Origin: Mycoplasmatota bacterium
GTDB taxonomy: Bacteria > Bacillota_I > Bacilli_A > MAG-NZ
Reading direction: 5' to 3'
DNA length: 64,000 bases
Assembly: GCA_018394315.1 (NCBI GenBank)
Contig: CP074575.1
Coordinates: forward strand, 62,001 to 126,000
Below the pieces are notes generated by a model. That model was given only the letters and a program-made list of their open reading frames with translations, searched no databases and was not told the origin of the DNA. This document shows, one piece after another, positions 1,883 to 40,498 of the stretch (position 1 is the stretch's first letter; each line of letters begins with the position of its first letter). Both the position numbers and the translations under genes were made by a program.

Positions 1883-1893
1883 GTTACCCTCCA

Positions 1894-3084: not shown

Positions 3085-3096
3085 TAGAACCTCCAT

Positions 3097-4296: not shown

Positions 4297-4309
4297 CAGA
4301 CTCTCCTTA

Positions 4310-5782: not shown

Positions 5783-5824
5783 AATAACCTCCATAATTAT
5801 TATTATACGTTTTGGATAAATTAG

Positions 5825-5940: not shown

Positions 5941-5960
5941 ATATTCAGTTTTACACCTTC

Positions 5961-5989
5961 ATTTTATCATTCAGAGAAATCCATTACAA
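5961..5989 (-). promoter_or_regulatory. Sigma70/SigA-type promoter for the PLP enzyme-dpaL-ygeY-ygeW-ssnA operon
   Basis: Minus strand TTGTAA-17 nt-TAAAAT with extended TG. Confidence 0.55.
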
Positions 5990-6067
5990 GTGCTTTTTTA
6001 TACTTTCAAATCATATTAGTTGACAAAATTTGCGCTATTCATAAGATAAATGCTTTTAATTATTTAA

Positions 6068-16147: not shown

Positions 16148-17008
16148 TTACTTAATCACTTCTTCTAGAACAGCTTCTTCTAAGTCTTTTAGAGTATAGA
16201 AATGTTCCATTACATCGTATGTTTCTCTAAGATTATTTTTAGCTGTTCTCCATCCAACACCATCAGTAATCCATACAAATGAAACTCCATCTATTTTTCT
16301 AATATCATTGGCAATAGATTTAAAGCTTCTAGCTGTTTCGTTTAATTTAGAGCCTCCACCTGTATAAAAATTAGTTTCTATCAAGTATAAATGATCGCTA
16401 GTTTTTATTACAAAATCAAATTTCTTTTCTGCATCTTTCTTAGTTTCATCTGCTAGGATTAATCTATCTAAGTTGATATTGTATCTATTAGCAATTTCCT
16501 TTTTTCTCATTTCAGGAAAGTATTCTACACACTCAACTCTAGAAATGTAAGACTCCACAATATTTTCCATTGTTCTTCCGGTTCTATTCTTCCTTGCATT
16601 TGAGTCTAAACCAACTTCTACTCCTACAATGTAGTCATAAAGACACTTAACTTTATTGTTTTCCATTAGATTAAACAAACCAGATTTACGCATAAATTTC
16701 AGATACAACTCATCACTCATCACTCGTTCTTTGAAGTTGAAAACAATAGGTTTATCATCAACTATCGGCAGTTCCATTTTTCTAACTGCAAGTAGCAAGG
16801 GAACAACATTTAATATTACAGGGAATTTATCCAGCAAAGACATAAAGTCTATCTCAATTTGATTTGAGCCTAAAAGAGAGTTAAGTATATTTAGTTCAAC
16901 CTTAAACTTCTTCACATTTACAAACACTTTATCGAAGTCAGTATAATATTTATAATCCGCAACTGAATCTTTAAGACTATTCATTATATCATTAAATTCT
17001 CTCTTCAT
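16148..17008 (-). CDS. dpnB: DpnII-family type II restriction endonuclease (GATC)
   Basis: GVEVGLDSNARKNRTG, KKFDFV, IETNFY.GGGSKLNETAR, WITDG.GW. Confidence 0.9.
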   Translation of the reverse strand: MKREFNDIMNSLKDSVADYKYYTDFDKVFVNVKKFKVELNILNSLLGSNQIEIDFMSLLDKFPVILNVVPLLLAVRKMELPIVDDKPIVFNFKERVMSDELYLKFMRKSGLFNLMENNKVKCLYDYIVGVEVGLDSNARKNRTGRTMENIVESYISRVECVEYFPEMRKKEIANRYNINLDRLILADETKKDAEKKFDFVIKTSDHLYLIETNFYTGGGSKLNETARSFKSIANDIRKIDGVSFVWITDGVGWRTAKNNLRETYDVMEHFYTLKDLEEAVLEEVIK

Positions 17009-17195
17009 AACTAATCTCCTTGACTGAACTGAAAATATATTTTTTGATACAAGTTTACAAATAACCTATGTCTTGTAGACTTTCCTACCAGGAACCCTTT
17101 TTTAAATCTTAATGAAGCTAACTCTTCCAGAAGAAATTTTATCAGAAAAACAATATTTGTATTTGACGATTTTCTCAGACTTAAAATATACCATA

Positions 17196-18035
17196 TTAAT
17201 ACCCACAAATTATAGTTTCAACACCAACTCTGTTACTGGCATCAGAATTTATCATTCTCTTTGCTTGAACGACATCAATACTAAAATCTTTGTATAATTT
17301 ATTTATTAATGGCGTATTGTGATTTGTTATCATAACAAAACATCCTCTATCTTTTAATTCATGTGCAAGTCTTGCAAGTCTTTTCTGACCTTCAACACCA
17401 AATCCTTCTTTGGTGTAACTTTCAAATGTATCGCTTTTTAAAAGGTCATATGGTGGGTCAAAGAATATGAAGTCTCCTTCTTTTGCTTCTTTGCATGCAT
17501 CTTCAAAATCTCCACACAAAATATTAGTATGATGCTGTAGGAACTCACTTAGTGATAGCAAATTCTTTCTCTCATAAGTTCTTATTTTTACCTTGCCGTT
17601 AAATGGAACATTAAATTGTCCCTTCTTATTCACTCTATATAATCCATTAAAACAAGTCTTATTTAGATATATCAATCTCGCTGTCTTTACATAAACATCA
17701 TGTTTATTCCAGCTCTCAAGTCTATCCATTTCTCTAATTGAGTAATAGTAATCCTTCGGATTCTTGCTATGATTCTCTTCATGTTCATCTAGCAACACCA
17801 TAAGTTGCGTCGGGTCGTCTTTTATTGCTTTATACGCGTCAATTAATTCACTTGAAAAATCGTTTATAGTAGTTAAATTATTTTGAAGATGCATAAATAG
17901 TGCACCTCCTCCAACAAATGGCTCAAAATACGCATTATACTTATGGGGTATTCTCTTCTCTATTTCATTTATTAGTTGTCTCTTCCCGCCTACCCATTTC
18001 AAAAATGGTTTGATATCATAATCTTTTTTCATCAT
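17196..18035 (-). CDS. dpnM: Dam/DpnM-like N6-adenine DNA methyltransferase
   Basis: KWVGGK, EPFVGGGA, FNGLYRVN, DPPY. Confidence 0.9.
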   Translation of the reverse strand: MMKKDYDIKPFLKWVGGKRQLINEIEKRIPHKYNAYFEPFVGGGALFMHLQNNLTTINDFSSELIDAYKAIKDDPTQLMVLLDEHEENHSKNPKDYYYSIREMDRLESWNKHDVYVKTARLIYLNKTCFNGLYRVNKKGQFNVPFNGKVKIRTYERKNLLSLSEFLQHHTNILCGDFEDACKEAKEGDFIFFDPPYDLLKSDTFESYTKEGFGVEGQKRLARLAHELKDRGCFVMITNHNTPLINKLYKDFSIDVVQAKRMINSDASNRVGVETIICGY

Positions 18036-18081
18036 TAATCCCCCAACCTACTATCTAAATTATATCATATCACTCTAAAAA

Positions 18082-18770
18082 CTACACAGAATTTATCCTT
18101 CTTTTCGACAGCTCATAATATTGTTTCTCTTTCTCAATACCCACATATTTTCTTCCCAATCGCTTTGCAACCACACACGTTGTTCCGCTACCCATAAAAG
18201 GTTCCATCACAACATCTTCTTCATCGGTAGTTGCTAGTATTATTCTTTCTAACAATTTCTCAGGTTTCATCGTTGGAAGTTTCTCATATTTTTTTCTTTC
18301 AATGTAACCGATGATAACTTAATTACATCGCTCGTTCCTTTATCATCTATTGAAAAAGTGTAATCATAGTTAAGTTTGTACTTCAGTACTAAACCGAAAT
18401 TTATTTTAACAATAAATGGAGGAGGACCAAGTTTCTCCCACGTAATTAGATTTATCACAGTGAAGTTTAACTCCTTTAGTATGTGTCCAACATCAAATAT
18501 ATTATGATGTGTTCCAGTAATAAATATTGAAGCATTATACTTCATCACTCTTTTACATTCACTCAACCATGCTTTCGTAAAGGTTAGTACATACTCTCTA
18601 CTATTTGGCTTATCCCAGTTTCCCTTATTAACGGAAACAATCTTTCCAGAATTATAGGAGATTCCTCCATTTGATAGAAAGTATGGTAGAACAGCAAATA
18701 TCAGATTAGAAGAATTTGCTTTCGATTCTTTCATCTTAGGTATGCACTTATCATTAAGTATCATATTCAT
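18082..18770 (-). pseudogene. Degenerate second DpnA-like methyltransferase
   Basis: Paralog of 18796-19557 split by a frameshift near 18270; catalytic DPPY changed to VLPY; C-terminal part keeps EPFMGSGTT. Confidence 0.8.
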
Positions 18771-18795
18771 ATAAAAACTCCCTTCTACTATATAA

Positions 18796-19557
18796 TTAGG
18801 GAGTTTCGCTAATTTTCTTTAATAATACATCTTCTAATCTCAACTTAGATATTTCTATATACTCTTTCTCAGTATCAATACCAACATATTTTCTTTTATG
18901 TTTTATTGCTGCAACACCTGTAGTTCCACTTCCACTAAAAGGATCTAAGATAGTGTCCCCTTCTTTTGTTGCAGCTATAACAATTCTTTCAAGTAACTTA
19001 AGTGGCTTTTGTGTCGGATGATTACCGAAACTCTTCTCTTTTCTGTTTATGCAAGGAAAGTCCCAGACATCTTTCATCTGCTTTCCTCCATTCAGTTTCT
19101 TCATTAAATCATAATTAAAATAGTGTTTTGCTTTCTTACTTTTCTTTGCCCAAAGAATAGTCTCGGTACTATGTGTAAAATATCTACATGCTAAGTGTGG
19201 TGGTGGATTAGTTTTTCTCCATGTGATATTGTTAATTATAGTGAAGCCTGTTTCCTCAAGGGCTCTTCCTATCGAATAAATATTGTGATAGGTTCCAGAA
19301 ATAAAGACAGTCCCATTATCTTTAAGAACTCGCTTACATTTTCTCAACCACTGCTTATTAAACTTGTGTTTTTCATAATTAGATATTTGTTTATCCCAAT
19401 CAGCTTTATCTACTGAAACCATTCTTCCTCCTACACATGTTATCCCACCACTCGATAAGAAGTATGGGGGATCGGCAAATATCATATCTATGCTATTTTT
19501 TTTTAGTTTTGACAATTGTACTAAACAATCTTCATTGTATAATCTATATTCATTCAT
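18796..19557 (-). CDS. dpnA: DpnA-like N4/N6 DNA methyltransferase
   Basis: FADPPYFLS, HPTQKP, DPFSGSGTT. Confidence 0.88.
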   Translation of the reverse strand: MNEYRLYNEDCLVQLSKLKKNSIDMIFADPPYFLSSGGITCVGGRMVSVDKADWDKQISNYEKHKFNKQWLRKCKRVLKDNGTVFISGTYHNIYSIGRALEETGFTIINNITWRKTNPPPHLACRYFTHSTETILWAKKSKKAKHYFNYDLMKKLNGGKQMKDVWDFPCINRKEKSFGNHPTQKPLKLLERIVIAATKEGDTILDPFSGSGTTGVAAIKHKRKYVGIDTEKEYIEISKLRLEDVLLKKISETP

Positions 19558-22846: not shown

Positions 22847-22903
22847 ATATATAATAAATATGGATAAGAACTCCATGGGTTCTTATCCATATTTATTATA
22901 TAT
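22847..22903. repeat. 25-bp perfect inverted repeat with 7-nt spacer
   Basis: ATATATAATAAATATGGATAAGAAC-TCCATGG-GTTCTTATCCATATTTATTATATAT. Confidence 0.9.
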
Positions 22904-24791: not shown

Positions 24792-26492
24792 CTATTGCAT
24801 TACTAAATATGAATTCAAGAATGATGCTAATTGTTTCTTTTTGTTTCTACCTCTTGGGATATTTAATTGTTCAATAAGTTCGTCAATCTCATCATCATTT
24901 AAATTAATTAAAGATTTCAAGTAAAATTTAGCCCTTGAAGCACCGACGTAATATATTAATTTATTTTCTAGAATAGTATTTTTATCAATATCAACGATAA
25001 TAACAGCATCAGATTCTAAACCCTTAAACTTTCTTATAGTTGTAAATTCAACCTCTGTGTTATTTAATTTCATATAACCATTATTAATATACTCATTTAA
25101 ACTTGAACTTTCTATCGTTTTAGCAGTTAGAATAACTATATTTTCAATTTTTGATTGTAGTAAATTACTAATCATTTTACTAACTTCATTAAAGTTGTTT
25201 TGAACACCTTCAATTATTGTACATTCAGGTAATTCACCTGTTACTGCGCCATCTTTTAATTTTGGTTCTTTTTCTAGCAATGACATTGAATTTTTAGCAA
25301 TGTTATATGTGTTTCTACAATTCTTATATAGGGTAATCTTACAATCTGCATCAGCAATGTATTCAGGAATGTTTTCTCCCTGTACTAACTGAAGTTTATC
25401 ATAAAATATATAAAGCGAACCATCTCTTTCTTCCATTATTAAACTTAAATATTCTATTACTTGTTGATCCTCTAAGTTATCTTTTCCGAAGTCTTGACCT
25501 TCATCAATTATAATATGATCATACTCAAATGAGTTAGGCGCTTCACATGCAAGCAATAACTTATTACATAAAATTTCAAATGAATAAAACGGAGTCTTTG
25601 TGTATTTGATTGCAAATTTATCTATCGTATAAAAATCTATGTTTGAATTTTTATAGTTATCTTCTAAATATCGCTGAAGTTTTTTATTGTAACACAAAAA
25701 TAGTACCTTTTCGTTATTAGCAGCATGTCTATTTGCTTTTTCTAAAGCTATCATAGTTTTTCCTGTTCCGGCTTGCCCACTTATAATAGCACTTTTTTGC
25801 TCTTCTAAGAAGTCCAATAATCGCTTCTGTTCTTCTAGTAATATATTAAACTTTTGTTCTTTAATATCATGTTCATGTGATACGGTTGGAACAAGATTAA
25901 ACGTTGGACAAAAAATATTATTAATCATATATTCTGTTTCAGTTTTATTTAGTGGATTATGTTCAAAACGGTTTGATGATGAATTATATATTCGGACAAT
26001 TGCTGATTCTATCTCATTTAAATCATCTTTTGAAATAATTAAATCTTTTGGACTTTCCGATGGAAAAACCCTACTACTAATAGCAGCATTTGAAATTGAT
26101 GGAAAGCACACAGCGTGCATAAATAGACATTTCCTACTTATATCAAATCGATTTCCTCTGTTAGCAATTAATTCCATCAATTTATACTTGTTAAGCTGAG
26201 CTTGATTAAAGGGTCCATCATGTTTCATAAGTTGACCTGACCCATATAGCCATTGACCATTTTCATACCTAACTTGACCAGCTTTTGCCTCAACAACTAT
26301 TACTCCCTTATTCTTATTAAAAATAATGAAATCAGCTTCACCTTCCACTATTCTCTTGTCCTTAAAATACACCATACCAAAAGAATGAAAAACATAATAA
26401 TCATCACTTAAATTTTGTAGTGCACTGTATATTACGCCTTCCTTACTCTCCAATTTAAAACTTCGTGGCATTGGTGGAATCATTCTTGCCAT
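24792..26492 (-). CDS. NERD nuclease fused to SF1 (UvrD-like) helicase
   Basis: EADF...VEAK nuclease core; GQAGTGKT, DEGQD, NCRN, FKGLE, YVGASRA. Confidence 0.85.
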   Translation of the reverse strand: MARMIPPMPRSFKLESKEGVIYSALQNLSDDYYVFHSFGMVYFKDKRIVEGEADFIIFNKNKGVIVVEAKAGQVRYENGQWLYGSGQLMKHDGPFNQAQLNKYKLMELIANRGNRFDISRKCLFMHAVCFPSISNAAISSRVFPSESPKDLIISKDDLNEIESAIVRIYNSSSNRFEHNPLNKTETEYMINNIFCPTFNLVPTVSHEHDIKEQKFNILLEEQKRLLDFLEEQKSAIISGQAGTGKTMIALEKANRHAANNEKVLFLCYNKKLQRYLEDNYKNSNIDFYTIDKFAIKYTKTPFYSFEILCNKLLLACEAPNSFEYDHIIIDEGQDFGKDNLEDQQVIEYLSLIMEERDGSLYIFYDKLQLVQGENIPEYIADADCKITLYKNCRNTYNIAKNSMSLLEKEPKLKDGAVTGELPECTIIEGVQNNFNEVSKMISNLLQSKIENIVILTAKTIESSSLNEYINNGYMKLNNTEVEFTTIRKFKGLESDAVIIVDIDKNTILENKLIYYVGASRAKFYLKSLINLNDDEIDELIEQLNIPRGRNKKKQLASFLNSYLVMQ

Positions 26493-26496
26493 AAAA

Positions 26497-29400
26497 TCAC
26501 CCTTTCATGATCTTATCCAATGTTACAACTTCCCAATCAGAATAAGTATTATCAATATCAACATCATCAAATAAATATATAATTTTATTAGTGTTATTTA
26601 TGGCATCAACAGCATATTTTTCTCCATTAATTTCTACATCAGACATATAATAAATCTTATCGTTAATATTGTTTTTTTTTCTTAAGAAGTCAATACATAT
26701 AATTTTATCTTCTTTAGAAATTTGTAAATCTTCAACTATGTAATCATAATCTCTACCAGATATATCCATGCCTAACTTGATTATTTTAATATTTTTACTT
26801 ATTCTTTCTGGTGGTGTATCAAAAAGTTCTTCTTGAAAATCATTGATATCATTTAATACCCCTTTAATTACTTTTATTGCCAAACCTCTTTTTAAATGTT
26901 CATGAACTTTTTGATTTTGATAATTTCTTAAACAACTATAACAGGAGGTGTTCTCTTCACAACAATCCTTCTCTAATAAATATACTGCAGCTTCTAAGAC
27001 TGTTACAACATTTGCTTTCCTCATAATCCTCTTAACATGACCTGCACCACCAGGCACTTGGTCAAATAAAATTATTTGTGTTCCATTAGATTGATGTATC
27101 AATCCATTTATATCTCGTCTTTCAATATTAAAAACATATGATATTGCATTTAATATTGCATATAGCGTTGATAACGAACCCTCTTTTGTTAACTTATTGC
27201 TTGAATCAAATGAAAGTTTTAAAACGTCTGTTCTAAAATTATGAGCTAAATGATGTTTTTCAAGGTTCTTTTGGAGACATTCTCTTCCATTTTTGTTTTT
27301 ATGAGTCTTTTTAGCCCGTTTAGAAGGTCTATTTGCATTTTTCTTATCAATTTCTGCGTAACCACATTTTTCACATATAAAGAATGGTGATTTATTAAGG
27401 CTTATTAACTCATCATTTTTGCTTGACTCCACACTTAAATATTTAGTTAAGAGATACTTATCATGATTACTCACACCATTTCCAATATACTTTGTTTCAC
27501 CTGCAAAAGTCTTTTTAGGTTTTAACCTTGTAGTTTTTAGTGGTTTACTCTCAGTTGCAAAACCATATGATGGAACTATGTACCTATTCATAGTACCTCT
27601 CTCGGTACCGCAAATAGGGCATGCATCCATTTTTTCACTTGTTTGTGTATAGTCAGTTACAAGTGCATTACAGTTCGTACATTCAAAATAAAACCTAGAT
27701 TCTAATTTCTTAAATTCTCCAGTTGGAAACTTAATATATCTTGAAGTATATTTCTTTTTATCGATAAATATCTCTGATTCAGGAGCAAACTCAGAGATTG
27801 CAATTCCTAAGTCCCTACTTGGACTTGAATTATCTTTAGTTTTGAAGGAAGCAAAATCTTTAGATATTTCTAAATTAACTACATCAACTGGAAATCCATA
27901 CTTTGGTATAACAATGTATGATGTAAGTGTTGATATTAATTGACCATCCTTTATTCTATCTATTTGATAATTTATGTTTGTTGCCATTCTAGTTGCATTT
28001 GAACTTCCATCTTTTAGAAGTAGTTTTTTCTCTTCTTCTAATTTGTTTATTTCATCTTCTATAGTACGGCACATTTTGTTTATACTTGAATCATCATTAG
28101 TTATTTCATTTATCCAACCTGAGTGTATTGAATCCATGAATAAATCACTAAGGATTGCATTTGTAATATAGTCTTCTAATTCAATTGGATTATCTTTTAC
28201 ATAGTCAATGAATTTATCAACTATTTTATTGTTCAAAAACTCTCCAATTGTGTTAACATATAACTCTTCATTTTTACTAAAGAACATTCCTAAGGCTGCT
28301 GCCATAATATGTCTCATAACGATCTTTTTATTTGAGATGTCAAAGTAAGGGGGTCTAACAACACCTTTTATCATATCCTCAGGATTTGAAAAGTATGTAA
28401 AATCATGAGAACTAAAGCCACAGTATGTTAGAACAAATGCTTCATTGCTATTTCTCCTCCCAGCTCTACCTGCTCTTTGAGAATAGTTTGATGGTGTAGG
28501 TGGAACATTTCGTAAAAATACATCATCTAAGGAACCTATATCAATTCCCATTTCGAACGTTGTTGAACTACTTAGAACATTTATTTCCTTCTTCTTAAAT
28601 TTTTTCTGGAATTTCTTACCTTTAATTTTTCCTAATTGAGATGTATGCTCTTCGACAATTAATCTTTCGATTACTTTATTCTGATACTGTTTTTTATAAA
28701 AACTACCTATATTACTTACTTCTTTTCCTTCATTATAAGTTTTTAATTTACCAGTACAACCGTAACCAATACAAGTATTTCTTACATTATTAAGTGTTAA
28801 CTTACCACACTTTTCACATATATACCACGTTAAGTTTTTTCCACTAATTACGTTGTAATTACTTACATTTATTTGTTTCTTATATTTTGCGTCTGGAAGA
28901 CTCTCAAATATATTCAACTTTTCGCAAAAACGCCATATCTCCTCAGCAAGATTTCTAGCACAATCTGCATTATTATTCAAAACTCTTGTTAAGTAAGAAA
29001 TAAGCTTATTTGATTTTATTTTTTTTCTAGTAGTTCCACTTGGCATAAAAGACCTTACACTATTACTTTCCCTAAGTTCTTTTTCAACAACTTGTACCTT
29101 AACCACAGTATTGTTATAACTTCTATAAGCTAGTTCATCTTCTAACTTGTCCTTATCTAGTTCATGTTTTTTATATGCTATTGCTGGTGCCATTCTAAAC
29201 ACATCAAGAGCCTCATGAATTAAAGCAATTATTTCATCAATGTTAAACTGACTTAATTCCTGATAATAACCTTCTGTTAGAAATTCATTAATAATACCTT
29301 TTTTTAATTTCTTCAATCTAAATCCAAATAAGCCAAGTCCTTCACCACTAAACTGTCCATCCACTTTAAGTAATTCAGATAATGTTGCAATCCAAGCTTC

Positions 29401-31515
29401 TGTCTTATATGCTTCTTCCAGGTCCCCTTCAGCATTTATTATTTTTCTTCTTTGAATATACTCCTCCATTTCACCAGTTAATTCTTTGAATGAAAGTGAA
29501 TCATCTAACTCTAGCATTTTTAAAATTAATCTTTTTCTCAAAAATCTAAGATGGTTTAACTCTAGAAACTTCGCATAAAAACTTGCCTGTTGTACCGAGT
29601 CGGAAAAGGCAATAAATTGTTTAGGTTTTTCACCTGACATTGTTTGAAGATTCATTTGTCCAAGTAATGAAGTTGCTTCATCTTTTTGAATATGAAATGC
29701 CCTTACTACACCACTTCTACTTTTTTGTTCACAAATAGGACATTTTTTTATGTTATTAGGCATTCGTTTTTTTTCTTCAACATGATATACAGAAAACTTG
29801 TAATTGCGTGAGCATTCGCAATCAATTGAATTAACATTTTTAATTCTCTTTAAGTGTCCACATTTTTGACATAAAATATATTCTACTACTTCCTCTGAAT
29901 TTACATCTATATGATTTCTATTTACCAGTAAAAAATCAATATTCTTTAGTTCTTTACTTTTTTCAGAATCACCATAGTTTTCATATATATCAACTTCATC
30001 ATTTTGAATAAATTTATTACTATTTTGCGCGATATGACCTATATAGTATGTAGATGAACAAAATTTGCATGTCCCTAATTCATATGCTTTTAAATCATCA
30101 ATTGTTTTTGTTCTATTGAATGCAACTTTCAAGTTTGGTTTAAATACTGCAAAAGCTCCAAAAGGCGTTCTTATGAACACGTGATATTTATAATCAAGCA
30201 ATCCGCGACGGTTAGATTCAGCTAATGATATTAGGTTAATATATTTCACAAATGTCTCCATAGATAAATCAAATTCGTTATATAAATCATTATATATTTC
30301 GCTAAATAATATAATATTTTTGTAATTAGCAATATATAAGAATATATTATCATTTAGTAGTAGATTGTATATTGTTTCATTAACATCATCTGTTGCTTCT
30401 ACATTATATTTGTTAGCAATAGAAGCTAGAATCTCTTCATATTGCTCGCTTTCTATGTTTCGATAGATTTTGTTAATATCTTCAACTTCTAAAGTGTATT
30501 TGCCATACTTTGGATATTCTATCCTATCAGAAAACACAATGTTTTCTTTGGTATATGAAGAATTAGTTAAACTTGATGCAAAATCTATTATTTCAGATAT
30601 GCTTTCTTCTCCTTTACCTAAAGTCGCACTTGTTAAGGCATACTGCACTTTCCCGTTTGTAAATTTACCAACTAATCGTCTTAATAAGTGACTTAACTCA
30701 ATTCCTTTAGAACCAGTATAAACATGAGCCTCATCCATAACAATGTATTTCCAGTTTTTTGTATTTTGTTTTACAAATATTTTTTGATCATGTGGTCTAA
30801 TTAAAATATACTCTAACATTGAATAGTTGGTGAATAATAGCATTGGGGGATTTTCTCTCATTTCATCTCTACTTCTAATTTCATTTTCTGGATATGGTAT
30901 GAATAAATCACCTTCTGCATCAAAATCAGCTTTTTCTCTTGAGTCAGCGTTTCTAACATCTTCTACAGTGTGTAATGTATCACCAGTAAATGAACCAAAA
31001 GTTATCTCAGGATAATCTTTAAGTATTTCTCTTAATCTAATTAACTGGTCATTTACTAGTGCATTCATGGGATATAAAAAAACAGCTTTGATTCCTTTAC
31101 TTTGAACACCGTTATCTAAGTCATTTAGAATGTCATTAATAATTGGAAATAAAAAACTTTCTGTCTTACCAGAACCTGTTCCTGTGGTAATAACAGCGTT
31201 TTCTCCACTTGACAATAAATTCAGTGCATTGTATTGATGTTGATATAGCTGCATTTGTAAATCAATACTAGATAACTGTCCAAAACGTTTTGACAAAAGA
31301 CCATTTTCTATAAGGTACTCTATTGAATAACTGCTTTTAAACGGCTTATTAATACTTAAATATGGACCCTTCATTATATCCATATTATTTATTCCATCAA
31401 TTAACAATTTTCTTAATTCTTTATCATCAACAAATACTGATGACATTAGGTATTCTTTGAACTCATTTTTAATAATTTTTGCTCTCTCTAATGGACTTAC
31501 ATACATACCTATCAC
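26497..31515 (-). CDS. Large SF2 DEAH helicase with Zn ribbons and C-terminal DUF1998 (DruE-like)
   Basis: TGTGSGKT, YPMNAL, DEAH, TSAT, EMGIDIG, QRAGRAGR; FDQVPGGAG...CC..NTSCYSCL; many CxxC. Confidence 0.88.
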   Translation of the reverse strand: MIGMYVSPLERAKIIKNEFKEYLMSSVFVDDKELRKLLIDGINNMDIMKGPYLSINKPFKSSYSIEYLIENGLLSKRFGQLSSIDLQMQLYQHQYNALNLLSSGENAVITTGTGSGKTESFLFPIINDILNDLDNGVQSKGIKAVFLYPMNALVNDQLIRLREILKDYPEITFGSFTGDTLHTVEDVRNADSREKADFDAEGDLFIPYPENEIRSRDEMRENPPMLLFTNYSMLEYILIRPHDQKIFVKQNTKNWKYIVMDEAHVYTGSKGIELSHLLRRLVGKFTNGKVQYALTSATLGKGEESISEIIDFASSLTNSSYTKENIVFSDRIEYPKYGKYTLEVEDINKIYRNIESEQYEEILASIANKYNVEATDDVNETIYNLLLNDNIFLYIANYKNIILFSEIYNDLYNEFDLSMETFVKYINLISLAESNRRGLLDYKYHVFIRTPFGAFAVFKPNLKVAFNRTKTIDDLKAYELGTCKFCSSTYYIGHIAQNSNKFIQNDEVDIYENYGDSEKSKELKNIDFLLVNRNHIDVNSEEVVEYILCQKCGHLKRIKNVNSIDCECSRNYKFSVYHVEEKKRMPNNIKKCPICEQKSRSGVVRAFHIQKDEATSLLGQMNLQTMSGEKPKQFIAFSDSVQQASFYAKFLELNHLRFLRKRLILKMLELDDSLSFKELTGEMEEYIQRRKIINAEGDLEEAYKTEAWIATLSELLKVDGQFSGEGLGLFGFRLKKLKKGIINEFLTEGYYQELSQFNIDEIIALIHEALDVFRMAPAIAYKKHELDKDKLEDELAYRSYNNTVVKVQVVEKELRESNSVRSFMPSGTTRKKIKSNKLISYLTRVLNNNADCARNLAEEIWRFCEKLNIFESLPDAKYKKQINVSNYNVISGKNLTWYICEKCGKLTLNNVRNTCIGYGCTGKLKTYNEGKEVSNIGSFYKKQYQNKVIERLIVEEHTSQLGKIKGKKFQKKFKKKEINVLSSSTTFEMGIDIGSLDDVFLRNVPPTPSNYSQRAGRAGRRNSNEAFVLTYCGFSSHDFTYFSNPEDMIKGVVRPPYFDISNKKIVMRHIMAAALGMFFSKNEELYVNTIGEFLNNKIVDKFIDYVKDNPIELEDYITNAILSDLFMDSIHSGWINEITNDDSSINKMCRTIEDEINKLEEEKKLLLKDGSSNATRMATNINYQIDRIKDGQLISTLTSYIVIPKYGFPVDVVNLEISKDFASFKTKDNSSPSRDLGIAISEFAPESEIFIDKKKYTSRYIKFPTGEFKKLESRFYFECTNCNALVTDYTQTSEKMDACPICGTERGTMNRYIVPSYGFATESKPLKTTRLKPKKTFAGETKYIGNGVSNHDKYLLTKYLSVESSKNDELISLNKSPFFICEKCGYAEIDKKNANRPSKRAKKTHKNKNGRECLQKNLEKHHLAHNFRTDVLKLSFDSSNKLTKEGSLSTLYAILNAISYVFNIERRDINGLIHQSNGTQIILFDQVPGGAGHVKRIMRKANVVTVLEAAVYLLEKDCCEENTSCYSCLRNYQNQKVHEHLKRGLAIKVIKGVLNDINDFQEELFDTPPERISKNIKIIKLGMDISGRDYDYIVEDLQISKEDKIICIDFLRKKNNINDKIYYMSDVEINGEKYAVDAINNTNKIIYLFDDVDIDNTYSDWEVVTLDKIMKG

Positions 31516-34247
31516 TCCATTCTTATAACTGCTTTAAATATACTTTTTAAGTTATTATTAAAATCACTACCGTCGTAAATTTGCTTACTTCTAATGTCAA
31601 AATCTATTCCATCTTCTTCTTCATCATACAAATCAACTTCAATATCTACTTTTGATATAATTTCTTCATTAAAATAGACATGAATAAAAGGTATCTTTTT
31701 AAAATAAACAGCTGGCGAAAACATTGTCTCATAAAAAATTTTCCCTGAAAATTTTTTTTGTTCTAATCTTTCTATAATTTCTAAATGTGTTCTTCTTATT
31801 TTATGTAATCTTGTTATGTCATAAGTGTAATCAACATACAATGAATCTATTTTAAACTTAAGCCCAACAATATCATCAAGCGTTCCAATATAAGGTTCAA
31901 TTTCATATAAAACATTCCCTTTTTTCTCATCAATTATTTTTATCTTATAATTTCTTAATGTTTCAAGTCCTCCAATAATCATTTCTTTGCGTTGTTTTTT
32001 ATAATAAAGTTCCTTTTCTAATTGATCTGACTTATATAATATAACTTTCAAATCATCTTCACCTAAATATCTTTCTACTTTTAAAGAAAGTGAATTTGTA
32101 TCTTCAATATAATTTATTTGGACGTCAGTTGGATCAATTTCCATGTTGTTAATAAATTTCACAGTTTTGACTACTTCATTGTTATCATGAAATTCTAGTA
32201 AATAATTCGAGCTATCATCCATCAGAATTAGTGATGCTCCTATATCAAACTTAAAAGTTACTCCACATTCTTGTCTAATTCCATAAATAGTGTTACTTAC
32301 AACATTATCATTTATATGGTAAATTTTTAATGTTTGAGCCTCTATTCCTGTAATTTCAATTTCCTCATACATTCTAAAATTACCACGCCATAATTCACTA
32401 CCAAAAGGTATCTTCTCACCCATACTGTTTTTATAGAAAGCAATTGGCAAAGTGAATTTTAAAACAAATGGAACATTATGTGACACATAATGTTCAGTAA
32501 ATACATTGTCAAGTTTAGCGTCAATACTGTAGACTCCAAATTCATTACGACTCTTTAAATTAGTTTTTATTATCAAATTATCATTTAATTTATTAGAATT
32601 GTAATCAAAAGACAAACTATCATCATAAACGAACTTTATAGATTTTCTCTCTACATTATCATTACTATATTTTATTTCTATATCTAATATGTTTAATCCT
32701 ATATCTGGCTCTATAGATAGAGTGTTATCACGTTTTTTATTTGTAACTACATTTCTCACTTTACCGTTATGACTAAACATTAGATTTACGATTTGTTTAG
32801 AGTTAGGTATAAAAACTCTTACATTTCCATTGTAGAGTTCAATTTGCGAATTATTTAAATATGCACTAATGTTATCAGGTGATTCAGCAATGATTTTTAT
32901 TTCTTCAAATTCAATCAAATGAATAACTTCATCATCAACTATAACATAATTTGCATCTCCATGAATTTCAGAAAGCTTTGCACATTGATTTATATTTAGC
33001 ATGTATTCTGCATTTTCTATATGTGAGTTTTTACTTGTTAAAATAAATAATTCTTCTTTGTTTTTAAAATTATTTATTAAGTGCTTCCCTTGCTCATCAA
33101 ATATCATATAAGTATTTTTAAAATCATAGTTATGTAATTTATTTAGTTCCACTTCAAATCTCATATCAAGTGGATTCCAATCTACTAAAATCTCAACTGA
33201 GGGCATAACATATCCCAAAATTTCATTATCTATTTCAGGTGCATCATTAACATAAACCAAGTCATCATCACAATATATTTTCACTTTAACAGTTGTAAGG
33301 TCTATATCTTCTGGTAAAATAATTGTTTTAGTACAAAAATAGAGTTGATTAAACTCATATAGCATAAACTCAGGCTTTGCTCTAAAGGTTGACTTTTTTT
33401 TGCTGCTTCTATTTGCTACTAGTTTACTAAATCTTTTTTCTCCGTAATCTAAAAACCATTTCTTTGCTCTCTCATAATAATATTCATTCTTATCACACTC
33501 TTCTTTTGCATCATTTCCCATTACAAAATCAATAGAATTTAATATTTTAATTGAAAAATTAATAACCTCATTTCTATATCTCCTATCCGCCATGACATAC
33601 CTAGTAGAGCTAATTAGTTTATATTTTTGATTTGTTACAGATGATTCTATAACCTCATTATCTGAATCATCGCTAAACACCCCCCTATAAATGGCACTTA
33701 AAAATTCATGTACACTTTCCTTATCTGGTAAGTTTGTGTTAAATGTACCAACATAGACTTCAAGCAATATATTATAAAACTCATTAAGGTATTTTTCAGG
33801 AACTATACAGTGATACAATAAACTGTTTATATATCTTCCACTCTCAATATCTTCGGTTGAAACGTATTGTTTCAATATCTTAATAATAATTGAATAGACT
33901 CTTGCATTAGTTAAATAGTAATAATTATCATACATTTCTTTATATGTATCATGAATATGAGCCCAAAAATTGCCATTATACTCTTCATAACCAATAAGTG
34001 CTAATGATATTAGAATGTAATATTTATCGTCTAAGTAATTTATCCGATTATTGGTTCGTAAAATTGCCTTCATTGACAATTGATGAATATACTCAATAAA
34101 AATATGGTCAGTACTAATATAGTGAAGTTCATTATAAATCAATTGGTGGTTTTGTATTCTCTTTATCATTTCTTCTATTTTTTTATCATAAATTGTTTTT
34201 CTAACATCATCCACAAAGGCCACCCCCTTTACATTAAATTTTACCAT
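31512..34247 (-). CDS. 911-aa hypothetical protein, possible DruH-like partner
   Basis: Long ORF overlapping the helicase start by 4 bp; helical N-terminus, beta-rich remainder; no catalytic motif recognised. Confidence 0.65.
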   Translation of the reverse strand: MVKFNVKGVAFVDDVRKTIYDKKIEEMIKRIQNHQLIYNELHYISTDHIFIEYIHQLSMKAILRTNNRINYLDDKYYILISLALIGYEEYNGNFWAHIHDTYKEMYDNYYYLTNARVYSIIIKILKQYVSTEDIESGRYINSLLYHCIVPEKYLNEFYNILLEVYVGTFNTNLPDKESVHEFLSAIYRGVFSDDSDNEVIESSVTNQKYKLISSTRYVMADRRYRNEVINFSIKILNSIDFVMGNDAKEECDKNEYYYERAKKWFLDYGEKRFSKLVANRSSKKKSTFRAKPEFMLYEFNQLYFCTKTIILPEDIDLTTVKVKIYCDDDLVYVNDAPEIDNEILGYVMPSVEILVDWNPLDMRFEVELNKLHNYDFKNTYMIFDEQGKHLINNFKNKEELFILTSKNSHIENAEYMLNINQCAKLSEIHGDANYVIVDDEVIHLIEFEEIKIIAESPDNISAYLNNSQIELYNGNVRVFIPNSKQIVNLMFSHNGKVRNVVTNKKRDNTLSIEPDIGLNILDIEIKYSNDNVERKSIKFVYDDSLSFDYNSNKLNDNLIIKTNLKSRNEFGVYSIDAKLDNVFTEHYVSHNVPFVLKFTLPIAFYKNSMGEKIPFGSELWRGNFRMYEEIEITGIEAQTLKIYHINDNVVSNTIYGIRQECGVTFKFDIGASLILMDDSSNYLLEFHDNNEVVKTVKFINNMEIDPTDVQINYIEDTNSLSLKVERYLGEDDLKVILYKSDQLEKELYYKKQRKEMIIGGLETLRNYKIKIIDEKKGNVLYEIEPYIGTLDDIVGLKFKIDSLYVDYTYDITRLHKIRRTHLEIIERLEQKKFSGKIFYETMFSPAVYFKKIPFIHVYFNEEIISKVDIEVDLYDEEEDGIDFDIRSKQIYDGSDFNNNLKSIFKAVIRME

Positions 34248-34545
34248 AATTTAACACTTTTCTCAATTTGTCCCAACTAAGTGCATATAATAAAAAACTA
34301 TAACAACCTCACAATTCATCTGTGATTTTTATAGGTTTTTTTTATTAAATAATTACTGCCTAAATGATATTTTTTTTATATTATTTCAAGATGTTAATTA
34401 GTCGAGAATTCTTCAACACAGGAAATTGTATTGTACTGTATAGATAATAACAAAATAATTCAAATCATTAGCTTTATATATAATATAATACGACACCTTT
34501 ACTTTTATCACTTGTGATGTAAATCTGTCGACAAATAAACAAAAC

Positions 34546-34589
34546 CAGGCTTTATGCCTGATTGTGTGCGTCATTAATGGTGCGGGTAA
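34546..34589 (-). repeat. tRNA 3'-end-like fragment (TTACCCGCACCA) plus terminator, copy 1
   Basis: 12-mer 34578-34589 ending in CCA, followed on the minus strand by CAGGC/GCCTG hairpin and U-rich tail. Confidence 0.55.
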
Positions 34590-34717: not shown

Positions 34718-35608
34718 CTATAACAAAGAGTCAATGGAATTTATTATTTCAATTATTTGATGCTCAAATGATGATTTATCCATACTGGTTATTCTACAAA
34801 ATTGATTATTAGTTAGATAAAATGAAAAGGATTTTGGTAAAGTAATATCATCAACTATGACTGGAATAATGATAGTACCATGATTTACTGCTCTATCTAT
34901 TTCTTTCTCTACCCATCTAGATTTTATAGATCTATCCGTAAGTAAGGCCAAAAAACAAGAAGAATAGGAAATTGCATCTTCTATCGATTCTGCATAACTG
35001 CTTCCATATTTAATGTTATCCGGTGCAAACCATGTTCGATAACCATTTTGTTCAAGTACCGATTTAACTTTACGAGCTAATTTCTCATCCTCCGTACAGT
35101 AGCTTATGAATACATATCTTTCATTCTTATTTATATCTTTATCTACTATTGTTATATCTCTAAACAAAAAATCATACACCAAACTATCTAAATTATTAAG
35201 GTTTAAAGAAACATTATCTAAAAGGATTTTTTTTAATTCCTCTCTGTTGTCACAGAAATCACTAGATACTTCGTCTAGTGCGGAATCAGCTAAATCCAAT
35301 AACTCAACACTGTTTTGGTCCGAAACATCTGAGTTTGCAATAACATAACGATAAGCTCCAATGCCTACCATAATTGCATTCTTTATATTTTTGTCATCCC
35401 TAGAATAATAATTAAATATATTCTTACTATATAATTTGAAGTCTTTCGCGTTATTCTTTAGACCATCCATCAACAGAATGGAATTCAATTCCTCCCTAGC
35501 TTCTTTAAATGCCTTCTTAGCGAATCTAAATTTCGTGTCCCACAAAAATTCTACTCTACCTAGTCGATACCCTAGACCAAAAGAGTTTAAGAAACGATTT
35601 TTATCCAT
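34718..35608 (-). CDS. TIR-domain protein (C-terminal TIR, unknown helical N-terminus)
   Basis: YVFISY, WFAP.NI..G, S.WV.KE (catalytic Glu position), IIPV. Confidence 0.85.
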   Translation of the reverse strand: MDKNRFLNSFGLGYRLGRVEFLWDTKFRFAKKAFKEAREELNSILLMDGLKNNAKDFKLYSKNIFNYYSRDDKNIKNAIMVGIGAYRYVIANSDVSDQNSVELLDLADSALDEVSSDFCDNREELKKILLDNVSLNLNNLDSLVYDFLFRDITIVDKDINKNERYVFISYCTEDEKLARKVKSVLEQNGYRTWFAPDNIKYGSSYAESIEDAISYSSCFLALLTDRSIKSRWVEKEIDRAVNHGTIIIPVIVDDITLPKSFSFYLTNNQFCRITSMDKSSFEHQIIEIINSIDSLL

Positions 35609-35752
35609 ACTAAACTCCCCTATCCTTTTTTGAAGTTTCTCACTTTATCCTTTTCTAAAAATATATGCATAATGTTTAGATCCGATTAGATGTTCTATCT
35701 TGACATTGGTATACAATTGAACTAAACTAATCAACTCCAATCAATGAAACTT

Positions 35753-36985
35753 TTATAAAGTGATTGATGGTTTCCTGATATTCTTTAACTGCTTCAAACT
35801 GTTGTTGAATGATTCTAGTTGCCATTTCTCTTCAACTCTTTCTTCAAATTCCAGTTTATACTTTAAATATTTATCCTTATTGCCGATCGCGAAGTAACAG
35901 TTTGAAAGTGTAGCATAAACCCACATTTCGTCAGGTAATTGTTTTATTTCACCACTTACTAAATTGAGCAGATTCTCGATTATGGTATTCCTAACTTTAT
36001 CAGCCTCAATGCTATAATATATTTTCTCTTTCCCATCTGAAATTGAAGACTTTACATCACAACATAAAGCGTAGTTTTCACCATTATAATAATCCACTCG
36101 GATACTAAATCCCTTTTTGTAATAATTAATAGCTAAATCAAGAAACTGATTATCAACCGTCTCATAATATAAATTCTTATGGATTGCTCCTGCTATACCC
36201 ATTGTTTCAGGGTCATTACTGTTTGGTAGTATCTTACTAATTATTGCCTTTGATTCAATTAAAGCAGCAAGAACAGACGGGCTCTCTGACTTGTAGGTAC
36301 ATAGTGCTAACTGTTGAATAAAGTAAGTATCATCGGGTTTTAATTTCAAGGCTTTCTCCCATTCTTTAGATGCCTGAATGAAATTAGACTTTCTTCTATA
36401 TAACATAGCGTTTTCTTTTATTGCATATAATTCATTCTCTTTTTCAGACAAACTTGCTATCAATTTTTCATATTGGTGTTCAGGAATGATTGGTGGACTC
36501 AACTCACTTAGATATTCATAAAGTGGACTATCAATTTCCTTAGCTGTTTCCACCTTTTGTATTAATGCTTCAAGATCCCTTCTACACCTGTCAACTTCCG
36601 AAAATCCTATATCCTTCCCCAAATGCTTATATATAAATGTCCTAGTATGATTGAGGTCAAAAGGAATACGTCCAGATGATTCTTTCATTACGATAGTGGA
36701 AAATGGTCTTAAAGCATGCCTTATACCAAGTTCATAAACAGCGTTTGGATTATAAGTAGAAATATCAGCTATTACTAATTCAGCTCTATATAGAAGCGTG
36801 TACATACTTTTATCAATTATTCCCGAATCATATACTTCATCAGCTCGTATACAGGTATATCCACACTCTTCAACTACGGGCTTTATGATATTTTCGTATG
36901 TTTTGTCCAAATCAAAAGTTTTTCCTGACTCATAATCTGTTTTCTCATGAAAACCCATTATAACGAAACAAATTTTGTTTACCAT
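35753..36985 (-). CDS. Deoxyribohydrolase-like (DRHyd/DUF4071) + TPR protein
   Basis: CFVIMGF, RADE, VIADIST.NPN.VYELG.RHAL, PFD; C-terminal TPR with ETMGIAGAIHK, YYNGENYA. Confidence 0.8.
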   Translation of the reverse strand: MVNKICFVIMGFHEKTDYESGKTFDLDKTYENIIKPVVEECGYTCIRADEVYDSGIIDKSMYTLLYRAELVIADISTYNPNAVYELGIRHALRPFSTIVMKESSGRIPFDLNHTRTFIYKHLGKDIGFSEVDRCRRDLEALIQKVETAKEIDSPLYEYLSELSPPIIPEHQYEKLIASLSEKENELYAIKENAMLYRRKSNFIQASKEWEKALKLKPDDTYFIQQLALCTYKSESPSVLAALIESKAIISKILPNSNDPETMGIAGAIHKNLYYETVDNQFLDLAINYYKKGFSIRVDYYNGENYALCCDVKSSISDGKEKIYYSIEADKVRNTIIENLLNLVSGEIKQLPDEMWVYATLSNCYFAIGNKDKYLKYKLEFEERVEEKWQLESFNNSLKQLKNIRKPSITL

Positions 36986-37584
36986 CAGGAGTTCCTCCTT
37001 CGTAGCGGGGAACTCGTATTATATGTTATTTTTTTCCTTCTCGAGAATGAAATATCAATTAATTCTTTTAATACATTGAAATCTTTTACGATAACATCCC
37101 AATCAACTACTGCAATATCAACATTACTAACGAAATTATCAATTATCCTATTTGGCATATAAGGATAGTTTTTTTCAAACTCACCCTTATTATTGAATCT
37201 TGTCCAATTACCATACTTGTTAATCAATTGCTTTTCTCTTTCTGAAGAGGCTCTTCTAGCTTGTCTAATGGTAGGTAAATTAACACAAACAATTCCTGAT
37301 TGGGGATTCTTATCAGTATTAATCATACTAGCATGGAGTTCCCAGTCTATAAATTTTCTTTTCATCGTGTTTTTTCCTACTAAAAGTATTGTTACAGTAG
37401 TATCACTTAAGAAGTCATCTCTAATAACGCGTCTTATTCTTTCGTCTGGCCATTCATCGGGAATATCACCCTCTTTAACTGACTTGTTTACAAATAAATC
37501 AGAATACTCACTTAATTGATCTAGTTGCTTCTTGTAAAACTCATCATCACTATGAAAGGAAACAAAAGTCTTATGTTTATTCAT
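36985..37584 (-). CDS. ThsB-like TIR protein (DUF1863)
   Basis: HKTFVSFH, IRDDFLSDTTVTILLVG, RKFIDWEL.AS. Confidence 0.85.
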   Translation of the reverse strand: MNKHKTFVSFHSDDEFYKKQLDQLSEYSDLFVNKSVKEGDIPDEWPDERIRRVIRDDFLSDTTVTILLVGKNTMKRKFIDWELHASMINTDKNPQSGIVCVNLPTIRQARRASSEREKQLINKYGNWTRFNNKGEFEKNYPYMPNRIIDNFVSNVDIAVVDWDVIVKDFNVLKELIDISFSRRKKITYNTSSPLRRRNS

Positions 37585-37785: not shown

Positions 37786-38616
37786 TCAACTCAATCTGTC
37801 AAATTGTAGCATAAATAGGAGTGTTATTTCTGGAGTCGAAGCAGGAATACCAGATTCAACCAAAAATTCTGTCCACTCAAGAGTTCTAGGTATTTGTGAA
37901 TAATAGTCTTTTTTATTATTGGCTAAGCTTTTAAGAACACTACTTTTAACATTATCTACATCGTAAATAGAACTTAAATTTTTTAACCCCATTTCTTGAG
38001 TAACATCTTTGATAAAATCTACCCTATCCGATTTAATAGAAATTTCCATAGAAAAATGAAACACTTGTGCAATATTAGCTAATCTTTCTTCCCTGAATCT
38101 CTTCTCTTCGCTAATTATAGAATTGTCGCGGTTGCTTATTAAATTATTTAGCGTCTTTATTTGCTCCTCGTCTGAAGAATTTTCTATCCGATCTTGATAA
38201 TTCTTAATTTCTTCCTTTAAAGAATCAATCTTGTTACTTTCCTGCTCAATCAAAGGATCGTTTTTTTCCCTAAGATACTTCATAATTGCACTTAATACCT
38301 TCTCGTCATCCTCCCCATTCTTAAGAAGAAACACGAATCCTTCTATTCCAACACTATTGCCTACATTTCGTATCCCATTTTGTGAAAGTCTCTTCAGGTA
38401 ATCTTCTCTCTTTGGTTTAATCACCTTATCGACATATTCCTCATAAGAAACGAAGTCATCTTCAAAATAATCAGGAATTCCTCCTCTCGATGACCAATAT
38501 ACATCACTAGTAGGATTCATTTGATTGGCATGATTATCCATTGCAGCTTTATGATGCGAACTGGTCGTATTGTTTACCATACTTTTCATATCGTTTGGTG
38601 AATAGTTTTTTGGCAT
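37786..38616 (-). CDS. Hypothetical protein with N-terminal DNHANQMNP motif and central coiled coil
   Basis: GGGGGT SD; motif DNHANQMNPTSDVYWSSRG. Confidence 0.65.
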   Translation of the reverse strand: MPKNYSPNDMKSMVNNTTSSHHKAAMDNHANQMNPTSDVYWSSRGGIPDYFEDDFVSYEEYVDKVIKPKREDYLKRLSQNGIRNVGNSVGIEGFVFLLKNGEDDEKVLSAIMKYLREKNDPLIEQESNKIDSLKEEIKNYQDRIENSSDEEQIKTLNNLISNRDNSIISEEKRFREERLANIAQVFHFSMEISIKSDRVDFIKDVTQEMGLKNLSSIYDVDNVKSSVLKSLANNKKDYYSQIPRTLEWTEFLVESGIPASTPEITLLFMLQFDRLS

Positions 38617-38710: not shown

Positions 38711-38992
38711 CTACATAAGAACAATTGAATGTTTAACTTCCCTTCTATTTGCATTCTTAATAACATATGTCAAATAGTTAATTCTAAAAACAGAGCCTAG
38801 GTTAAACCTAAGCTCTATTTCATCTTTATCCGCTTCTACAACAACCATTTCATGCATCAGTTCTCTAATTAGATAACTATTTTCGGATGTTATCATTTGC
38901 TTAAACCAATCAATCTTTGCTTCAACATCTTCCTTTGTTATTTCATTTTGATTCTCAGAACTGGTTTCTAAGGTATATAATTGTATCTTCAA
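38711..38992 (-). pseudogene. Possible large serine recombinase C-terminal tail remnant
   Basis: Coiled coil then LIRELM..VV...D.IELRFN pattern; no catalytic domain. Confidence 0.35.
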
Positions 38993-39105: not shown

Positions 39106-40278
39106 TTACTTATATCCTCCTAAAACTGCATATGTTGATGGTGTAGTACAAAGTTTTTCAACATCCTCACCACTATACACAGCAATTCTATTTTCCGTTC
39201 CAAACTTATACAACCTATATAAGAAATATCGTTCACCATATAGTTTGGCAGCATGTAACTCATGTGCGGTTATATAGAATAACGTGTTTTCCTCATATTT
39301 AGTTGTTTTTACTTCTATATATATTTGCATTCCTTCTTCATCGTATGATAATATATCATATCCTAAGCCATCTCCAATATTTTGAGATATCCACTTTGCC
39401 TTTTTACCTATACGAGATAACTTGTTGTTCTCATACTCTAAGACAAAACTCTCACCTGCTTTTCCCAGTTTGCTATCTCTTTTCGCCTTCTTGACGTAAT
39501 CAGTTATAGCTCCCCTCTTACCAATTTGAGGAAAATATTTACTTTTAGACATTTTACCAAAAGCTACATAAGGCACAATATATTTTTCATTATTATTTAA
39601 ATCCCGATATGTTCTCGCAGCATACCAAAAAACATTTTGAGCAAGTAAAAGTAAACCCTCATCATAGTAGTATAAATCACAAGATTTCAACTTTTGCATA
39701 TAATCACTTATAAGTGGATGATTCCATAATACTAGATTATCCCTAATGAGTTGAATCAAAGTCATAACTTTGCCAATTGAACCAACACGTCCCTTGATGA
39801 AAACTATTCCAGTTTCGAGTTCTTCTGAGAATTCTTTCAAGTCAGTGTATTTATAAATTGAGTACTTATTGGGAAATTTCAAAAAGAGCAGGGTGGAGAT
39901 AAATCTAAAATCGCTTCCACCTGTGGTAGAGTAGTCTAAGGAATTTTTAAGTTCTTTTATTGAACTAGAGAAACTTATAATTCTTTCGTTTAGTTCAATG
40001 CTCTCATTAAACAGAATTCTAAACGCCTCTTTGACTTCCTCCTTTTTATGGGATGCAATTTTAATTACTTCATTAATTGGAAAATAATTTCGTGATGCTA
40101 CTAAATTACTAGATTCATTTATAGATTCTTTTAACATATTTACAAAGTCAGAAGAGTCTATATTCCAGTTGTTTTGAAATCTCTCGACTTCTACCCACTT
40201 GTACTTTTCCTGAATCCAATTCTTTTCAAAATTCATCCAGTAATGGTTAACAATTTGCTTTAGTTTCCTCTTATTCAT
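39106..40278 (-). CDS. DUF3883 (PD-(D/E)XK) nuclease-domain protein
   Basis: G..GE..V, GDGLGYDILS, IEVKTT, E...A....Y.LYR at C-terminus. Confidence 0.8.
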   Translation of the reverse strand: MNKRKLKQIVNHYWMNFEKNWIQEKYKWVEVERFQNNWNIDSSDFVNMLKESINESSNLVASRNYFPINEVIKIASHKKEEVKEAFRILFNESIELNERIISFSSSIKELKNSLDYSTTGGSDFRFISTLLFLKFPNKYSIYKYTDLKEFSEELETGIVFIKGRVGSIGKVMTLIQLIRDNLVLWNHPLISDYMQKLKSCDLYYYDEGLLLLAQNVFWYAARTYRDLNNNEKYIVPYVAFGKMSKSKYFPQIGKRGAITDYVKKAKRDSKLGKAGESFVLEYENNKLSRIGKKAKWISQNIGDGLGYDILSYDEEGMQIYIEVKTTKYEENTLFYITAHELHAAKLYGERYFLYRLYKFGTENRIAVYSGEDVEKLCTTPSTYAVLGGYK

Positions 40279-40446
40279 AACCTAGTCTCCTTTGATTATC
40301 AGTTTTAACTATCTCGACATCCAGTGTTAATTATATCACCTTAGCTACAGAGAATGAAACTTCATCATAATCAAAAAGTAATAGGTATGTACCTAAACCT
40401 CTAATGTCATGGTTGGGGAACTTAAGAATGCCAGACCCACGATAAC

Positions 40447-40498
40447 AAAAAAACTGATAGATTTCTCTATCAGTCTGCGCACTAACTGGTGCGGGTAA
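40447..40498 (-). repeat. tRNA 3'-end-like fragment (TTACCCGCACCA) plus terminator, copy 2; island right border
   Basis: Same 12-mer at 40487-40498, followed by ACTGATAG/CTATCAGT hairpin and U-run. Confidence 0.55.

Follow-up and report, generated by a model that had tools for sequence, protein, structure and literature searches.

Do three genes at 34718..37584 of a 64,000-nucleotide stretch of DNA from a Mycoplasmatota bacterium (GenBank assembly GCA_018394315.1, contig CP074575.1, positions 62,001 to 126,000; here "the window") form a new kind of TIR signalling defence system, and what does the second of their two TIR genes contribute? Gene 1 (thsB) encodes a ThsB-type TIR protein, gene 2 (thsI-like) a putative effector combining an N-glycosidase-like domain with a TPR region, and gene 3 a second TIR protein with a helical N-terminal domain. 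The core of the locus, genes 1 and 2, has already been described, and we are confident that the two belong to type VIII Thoeris; taken as a whole, the locus probably encodes a type VIII-like anti-phage pair, to which gene 3 would add a TIR sensor feeding the same effector. The less explained part is the N-terminal seven-helix domain of gene 3.

The coupled TIR and glycosidase-TPR genes

All three reading frames are intact and co-oriented, with a purine-rich ribosome-binding site at each start, and they and the TGATG overlap lie where the initial annotation had placed them (Table 1). The sequence AAGGAGG stands closely 5' of the overlap, and genes 1 and 2 form a translationally coupled TIR and glycosidase-TPR pair, separated from gene 3 by 144 bp. 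Our promoter scan remained at chance level (28 found, 27.2 expected), and a look for sequencing runs turned up none. Genes 1 and 3 are the only TIR genes found in this 2.17-Mb, 93.6% complete genome.

Gene 1 had been read as a ThsB/DUF1863-type TIR with an intact Glu in a DWE motif, which we confirm: it matches ThsB_TIR in Pfam (PF08937; E = 1e-14) and ThsB in PADLOC (E = 8e-11), and E82 of its catalytic-position motif D80-W81-E82 aligns with a Glu found in 28/28 ThsB-type rows. In a tree of selected rows only, it clusters with 7 ThsB proteins from loci of gene 2 homologues (support 100/99).

Gene 2 matches the Pfam family TPR-S (PF20308; E = 7.5e-20, over the cut-off) and, under the cut-off, MAP3K_TRAF_bd (E = 2e-4); at E<=0.1 each of these families matches 75/75 aligned members of the effector family. 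The TPR-S/DRHyd family is reportedly linked to ASK beyond the MAP3K_TRAF_bd match. The structural model of gene 2 (pLDDT 88.6) shows a five-stranded alpha/beta N-terminal domain followed by 12 helices at residues 169 to 403, and the NPNAVYELG motif, already recognized in the initial annotation, lies at residues 79-87. Residues I9, M10, N79, P80, N81, and E85 correspond to I10, M11, N80, P81, N82, and E86 of BcTpr from B. cereus at a constant offset of -1, a match made by numbering and not by alignment, and M10, N79, N81, and E85 are invariant across the 75 aligned homologues. The deoxyribosyltransferase/hydrolase label given earlier to the N-terminal domain finds Pfam support in 0/75 aligned members (among the 25 families listed), and no Pfam or PDB sequence match names this domain in gene 2 itself; a DRHyd/CMP-hydrolase-like (cytidine monophosphate hydrolase-like) domain would fit the motif, the modelled alpha/beta fold, and the BcTpr paper. 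Genes 1 and 2 thus represent one more member of a family with thousands of homologues (2933 at E<=1e-40 among 7433 candidates for the effector), with effector homologues also in 89 plasmid records; among the 40 relatives searched there were only partial matches to the effector N-terminal domain, in 2 genomes.

This layout corresponds to type VIII Thoeris, defined as a TIR (ThsB) plus the effector ThsI, a 'CMP hydrolase'-TPR protein (Yirmiya et al. 2025, bioRxiv 10.64898/2025.12.03.692087; this and the other papers below are cited from the portions available to us). There, two type VIII TIRs, each expressed alone, made canonical cyclic ADP-ribose (cADPR) only upon infection, and the growth of type VIII cells was stopped by added cADPR and not by 2'- or 3'-cADPR; the nucleotide pool is the target that the authors suppose for ThsI, and they name Aravind and colleagues as having predicted its TPR domain. 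Our locus likewise has a TIR gene beside an effector with a TPR-S and a putative CMP-hydrolase-like domain, and homologues of this effector co-occur with SLATT (ThsH) effectors and several TIR genes, as do the components of the mixed type VII/VIII loci, with ThsH/ThsI operons, described in the same preprint. Yirmiya et al. tested systems of Yersinia enterocolitica and of a Pseudomonas scaffold, whereas the locus studied here lies in a low-GC 2.17-Mb genome, and a second TIR with an unnamed helical domain, such as gene 3, goes unmentioned in the available portion of Yirmiya et al.

The second described counterpart, BcTir/Tpr, has an effector (BcTpr) of 415 amino acids with a MilB-like glycosidase domain and a 12-helix TPR region, in which N82 and E86 are essential (bioRxiv 10.1101/2023.05.26.542521). 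Gene 2 shares with BcTpr its length, the two-domain plan, the 12 TPR helices, and the six named active-site residues. Unlike gene 1, BcTir is short (138 amino acids in PDB record 8FZ9), and phmmer gives no link between the two at E<=1; BcTir/Tpr also lacks a third gene, and its proposed mechanism is unlike that of type VIII. Both preprints cite Burroughs and Aravind 2020 for the prediction of the two-gene TIR and glycosidase-TPR layout; those TPR-S/DRHyd systems share the TPR-S and MAP3K_TRAF_bd matches seen here, and differ in being a computational family prediction. The text of a paper on E. coli TIR-I to TIR-IX (PMC11350192), in the portion available and excluding its figures, makes no mention of an effector of the gene 2 type, and later literature on the mechanism of ThsI or BcTpr did not appear among the matches listed. 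As context only, cADPR has been placed upstream of fly Ask1 (PMC13455253), and PMC9503650 gives background on DrHyd.

We therefore reject the view that genes 1 and 2 are a novel system, since a preprint of 2023 tested this layout as BcTir/Tpr and another of 2025 gave it the name type VIII Thoeris. The initial annotation had proposed a non-canonical TIR defence, and TIR signalling with a hydrolase-TPR effector and an ASK/MAP3K-like TPR region does fit; the implied novelty does not, and the full match to a catalogued system that was said to remove it is largely there, although PADLOC 2.0.0 (2023) holds no model for the TIR and glycosidase-TPR layout and NCBIfam likewise gave no such model match. 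The absence of ThsA, also claimed earlier, is expected because ThsI is the effector in type VIII. Neighbouring genes hold no SIR2-SLOG or TM-Macro ThsA of type I/II Thoeris by Pfam or PADLOC, and the genome as a whole gave no match to SIR2_2, STALD, or ThsA_Macro, a weak negative given that the STALD and ThsA_Macro controls matched nowhere and that the genome is 93.6% complete.

The linkage of TIR and effector genes is conserved, as the neighbourhood comparison called for by the initial annotation reveals: a co-oriented TIR gene lies directly beside the effector homologue in 25/34 genome loci. At least two TIR open reading frames (ORFs) occur within 3.3 kb in 14/34 loci (one second match is a 71-amino-acid piece, and four loci represent one shared module), SLATT (ThsH-like) genes lie inside the operon in 6 loci (neighbours hand-picked from 30 of the 34), and Acinetobacter baumannii plasmid NZ_CP103340 carries TIR-effector-TIR in the same gene order as here. 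Judging from the multi-TIR loci and this plasmid, a second TIR is ordinary for the effector family.

Some of these neighbourhoods hold further genes. One operon (L016, L017, L018, and L020; about 1676-7263) comprises PfkB, TIR-TGT, OGG-like, QueC, ThsB, and ThsI-like genes, with the Pfam scan covering L016 only; it may represent type VIII with accessory genes like those of type IV CBASS (cyclic oligonucleotide-based antiphage signalling system), comparable to what the Thoeris preprint shows in Fig. 6G. A ParA-TIR fusion and a deoxycytidine triphosphate (dCTP) deaminase-like gene stand directly 5' of effector homologues (L032:3982-5949 and L014:1581-3320). On Klebsiella, E. coli, and Priestia plasmids, gene-1-like ThsB is accompanied by a protein of 235-240 amino acids that has no Pfam name and carries two hydrophobic helices at its N-terminus (L047:2265-2972, L050:3153-3863, and L051:2277-2999), a candidate Thoeris effector that we have not matched to a named type.

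The helical domain of the second TIR protein

The initial annotation was also right to see a second catalytic-looking TIR behind an N-terminus of no known family in gene 3. Its TIR_2 domain spans residues 166-274 (E = 2.5e-23), and E236, at the catalytic position, is present in 23/23 rows. Residues 1-150 are modelled with high confidence as seven helices; a flexible linker, modelled with low confidence, connects them to the TIR. The N-terminal domain has no match in Pfam, PADLOC, PDB sequences, or Atlas, and we call it undescribed in this sense only, a nameless domain not being searchable by word. It has no similarity to gene 2. In a fold search with the gene 3 model, the structural matches are all filled by the TIR; the one to SpbK is to a structure of its TIR only.

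A full-library search identified 62 other proteins with the gene 3 N-terminal domain (one of them, P0181, unconfirmed), in which G13, E20, W23, and G82 show little or no variation. A TIR is present in 28/62, behind the domain in 19 (two of them CAP12-type) and in front of it in 9; elsewhere the partner is a lipase-like, HTH, GAF, or HEAT domain, or the protein has hydrophobic segments at its N-terminus. To be joined in this way to varied effector types would be expected of a sensor module. The domain is a fresh lead on phage recognition by TIR proteins, which is known for few systems. Other searches were sparser: a word-based search returned only the query itself among 349 candidates, none was found in plasmids or viral contigs, and only its own genome matched among 399 genomes, and among 8 genomes.

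A motif scan matched 8 metagenome loci, of which 6 hold the gene 3 N-terminal domain and 2 do not. In L041 and L046, which represent one element, the gene 3 relative ends a type II Thoeris operon, in L041 together with three other TIR-family genes, and in L045 it lies head-to-head with a gene pair for a 679-amino-acid membrane protein and ThsB. Both L039 and L043 are close to contig ends; there the relative neighbours an integrase or recombinase gene, and no Thoeris gene is close by. In L040 the relative lies among transposases. The L045 membrane protein (L045:6283-8724), encoded directly 5' of the ThsB gene, has no Pfam or PADLOC match; by eye we take it to resemble channel-like RyR-domain proteins.

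Signal, effector, and the rival explanations

By analogy with the homologous layouts in these papers, the locus would act in defence, with cADPR as its signal and a toxic effector. ThsB would sense infection and turn nicotinamide adenine dinucleotide (NAD+) into canonical cADPR, which the ThsI-like protein would bind; once activated, the latter would cut an essential nucleotide, likely NAD+, through its E85 active site, leading to cell arrest. Gene 3 would serve as an added TIR sensor for the same effector, likely widening the range of phages sensed. The parts of this scheme differ in strength. cADPR is probably the signal here, judging from the tested type VIII systems, and the chances that NAD+ is the main effector substrate are about even; the cADPR site is putative, as are the substrate and the role of gene 3, and that gene 3 signals to the gene 2 effector seems to us plausible at slightly less than even chances.

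Several observations weigh against this reading. Nine of the 34 homologue loci have no TIR neighbour within 3.3 kb, and in the survey of the BcTpr preprint the effector stands alone in 29/78 operons; therefore the effector may also act without a TIR. The assignment of genes 1 and 2 to type VIII is made by architecture, motifs and residue numbering, and context, not by alignment with a tested ThsI or BcTpr. The nearest plasmid homologues of gene 1 (~41%) adjoin a different, two-helix membrane protein in the three records opened, and since ThsB clades switch partners, we infer cADPR from the effector and not from the TIR clade. The two preprints disagree over which protein makes the cyclic product. 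Finally, the gene 3 N-terminal domain was found beside 0/34 effector homologues; gene 3 thus does not belong to the conserved make-up of type VIII systems, and in our locus the 144-bp gap sets it apart from gene 2.

Gene 3 is either an added sensor or a stand-alone NADase resembling SpbK of ICEBs1, in which a helical N-terminal domain and a flexible linker precede a TIR that makes N1-cADPR, for which the receptor is not known (PMC12847820). If genes 1 and 2 were type VIII and gene 3 an independent defence, its helical domain would bind a phage protein and cluster the TIRs, which would deplete NAD+ alone; we give this a considerable minority share of our confidence. Gene 3, as modelled, shares the architecture of SpbK and its location on a mobile element, the best PDB sequence matches of its TIR include the AbTIR and Cat1 NADases, its relatives in L039 and L043 stand apart from Thoeris genes, and other proteins combine its N-terminal domain with CAP12-type TIRs, a lipase-like domain, or membrane segments. 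On the other hand, three of the six fetched relative loci (two independent elements) are at Thoeris-like operons, and the N-terminal part of SpbK, which works by itself, is a four-helix bundle of 94 residues, whereas that of gene 3, the neighbour of a likely cADPR effector, comprises seven helices in 150 residues. No sequence similarity to the SpbK N-terminal domain was detected with PADLOC or PDB sequences, and the PADLOC spbK match of one relative spans only its TIR. Because SpbK shares the plan of gene 3 and itself makes N1-cADPR, a stand-alone NADase could still trigger a neighbouring effector, and the two readings of gene 3 can overlap. In its broadest form, which we consider unlikely, the seven-helix domain would be a portable phage-sensing module of bacteria and archaea, found with unrelated Thoeris types and bolted to either end of TIRs, to CAP12-type TIRs, lipases, and membrane anchors, and gene 3 would here be a second type VIII input, an SpbK-like NADase whose cADPR ThsI reads.

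The BcTir/Tpr model would instead make the TIR a binding partner and not a signal maker, with the glycosidase-TPR protein producing a cADPR isomer and depleting NAD+ in complex with it. For B. cereus, NADase activity of BcTpr by itself was reported, along with a requirement for both genes and BcTir-BcTpr binding in a pull-down; the overlap of genes 1 and 2 would suit a 1:1 complex. We nevertheless consider this model improbable here, given that Yirmiya et al. saw phage-dependent cADPR from the TIR alone and toxicity of added cADPR, that the BcTir chain in 8FZ9 has a Glu in the ThsB catalytic-Glu column, which sits badly with an 'inactive' TIR, and that the effector is accompanied by very different TIR clades and gene orders, as suits a diffusible signal. 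Very improbable, in our estimate, is that genes 1-3 are decayed or silent cargo with no present defence role: the carrier is broken, with a recombinase remnant and displaced attachment scars, but the three frames, ribosome-binding sites, and catalytic-position residues are all intact. Having a single effector, and with genes 1 and 3 as the sole TIR genes found genome-wide, the locus offers a clean test of which TIR signals, and a test case for the ThsI substrate, the cADPR site, and the mechanism on which the two preprints disagree. If true, a link from gene 3 to ThsI would supply the missing receptor for cADPR from 'stand-alone' TIR NADases.

The carrier element and neighbouring genes

The cassette sits in a defence-rich island. 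Between scars at 40498 and 34589 lie the DUF3883/NOV_C gene, a recombinase tail, a 276-amino-acid ORF, and genes 1-3 (Table 1). Genes 1-3 likely arrived as a single cargo block, on an element that has since been broken; this indicates that they moved together, not that they work together. The terminal 12 bases of tRNA-Leu(TAG) have exactly 4 copies in the genome, against ~0.05 expected (estimated by hand from the base composition): one at the tRNA itself and one 4.6 kb away (genome 2076407 and 2071764), and two at window 40498 and 34589, where both copies are followed by a terminator resembling that of tRNA-Leu. The relative (G004) protein matched by the recombinase remnant is a 535-amino-acid Resolvase/Recombinase/Zn-ribbon protein, and a scar of this kind also terminates the G004 cargo. 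In the 7 family members searched, we found no long match to the DNA between 30000 and about 40700, and the oxidoreductase operon above this region is 76-86% identical in two family members.

Table 1. Features of the locus and its cargo block, in window coordinates
Feature	Position	Strand	Remark
Gene 1, thsB: ThsB-type TIR, 199 amino acids	37584-36985	minus	predicted phage sensor and signal synthase
Gene 2, thsI-like effector, 410 amino acids	36985-35753	minus	N-glycosidase (CMP-hydrolase/DRHyd-like) domain 1-150, predicted; 12-helix TPR-S
Gene 3, second TIR protein, 296 amino acids	35608-34718	minus	seven-helix N-terminal domain 1-150, linker 153-159, TIR_2 with E236
TGATG stop/start overlap, thsB-thsI coupling	36983..36987	minus	1-nt overlap of genes 1 and 2
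tRNA-Leu(TAG) 3'-end copy and terminator hairpin	34540..34589	minus	attachment scar at which the cargo block ends, ~130 bp past gene 3
Second tRNA-Leu 3'-end copy and terminator	40445..40498	minus	upstream edge of the 5.9-kb block
Large serine recombinase remnant, C-terminal end only	38711..38992	minus	43% identity over 70 amino acids, E 4e-16, to the end of the G004 protein
276-amino-acid ORF, function not assigned	37786..38616	minus	201 bp upstream of thsB; low-complexity polar N-terminus
390-amino-acid protein, C-terminal NOV_C/DUF3883 nuclease-like domain	39106-40278	minus	PADLOC PDC-S36 E 2e-35

The 276-amino-acid ORF has no Pfam, PADLOC, or NCBIfam match over the cut-off, no homologue search having been made, and shows no sign of belonging to the system. 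If the contig is circular, the attachment scars of the window lie ~185 kb from tRNA-Leu(TAG) itself, a distance that suggests rearrangement or secondary integration sites.

The next cargo block after the 34589 scar (24792-34247, minus strand) is Druantia-like and encodes a 911-amino-acid protein with no PADLOC, Pfam, or NCBIfam match, a 1672-amino-acid DruE-like helicase (PADLOC DruE, E = 6e-183), and a NERD-helicase. Farther along, a DpnII-type restriction-modification cluster, which includes a short second N6/N4 methylase ORF (167 amino acids), occupies 16148-19557 (minus strand), and a near-perfect 57-bp palindrome lies at 22847-22903 within decayed ParA-like and other gene remnants. Elsewhere in the genome (C1:712683-712779), ARAGORN predicts a tRNA-SeC(TCA), which could instead be a Trp-type tRNA reading TGA.

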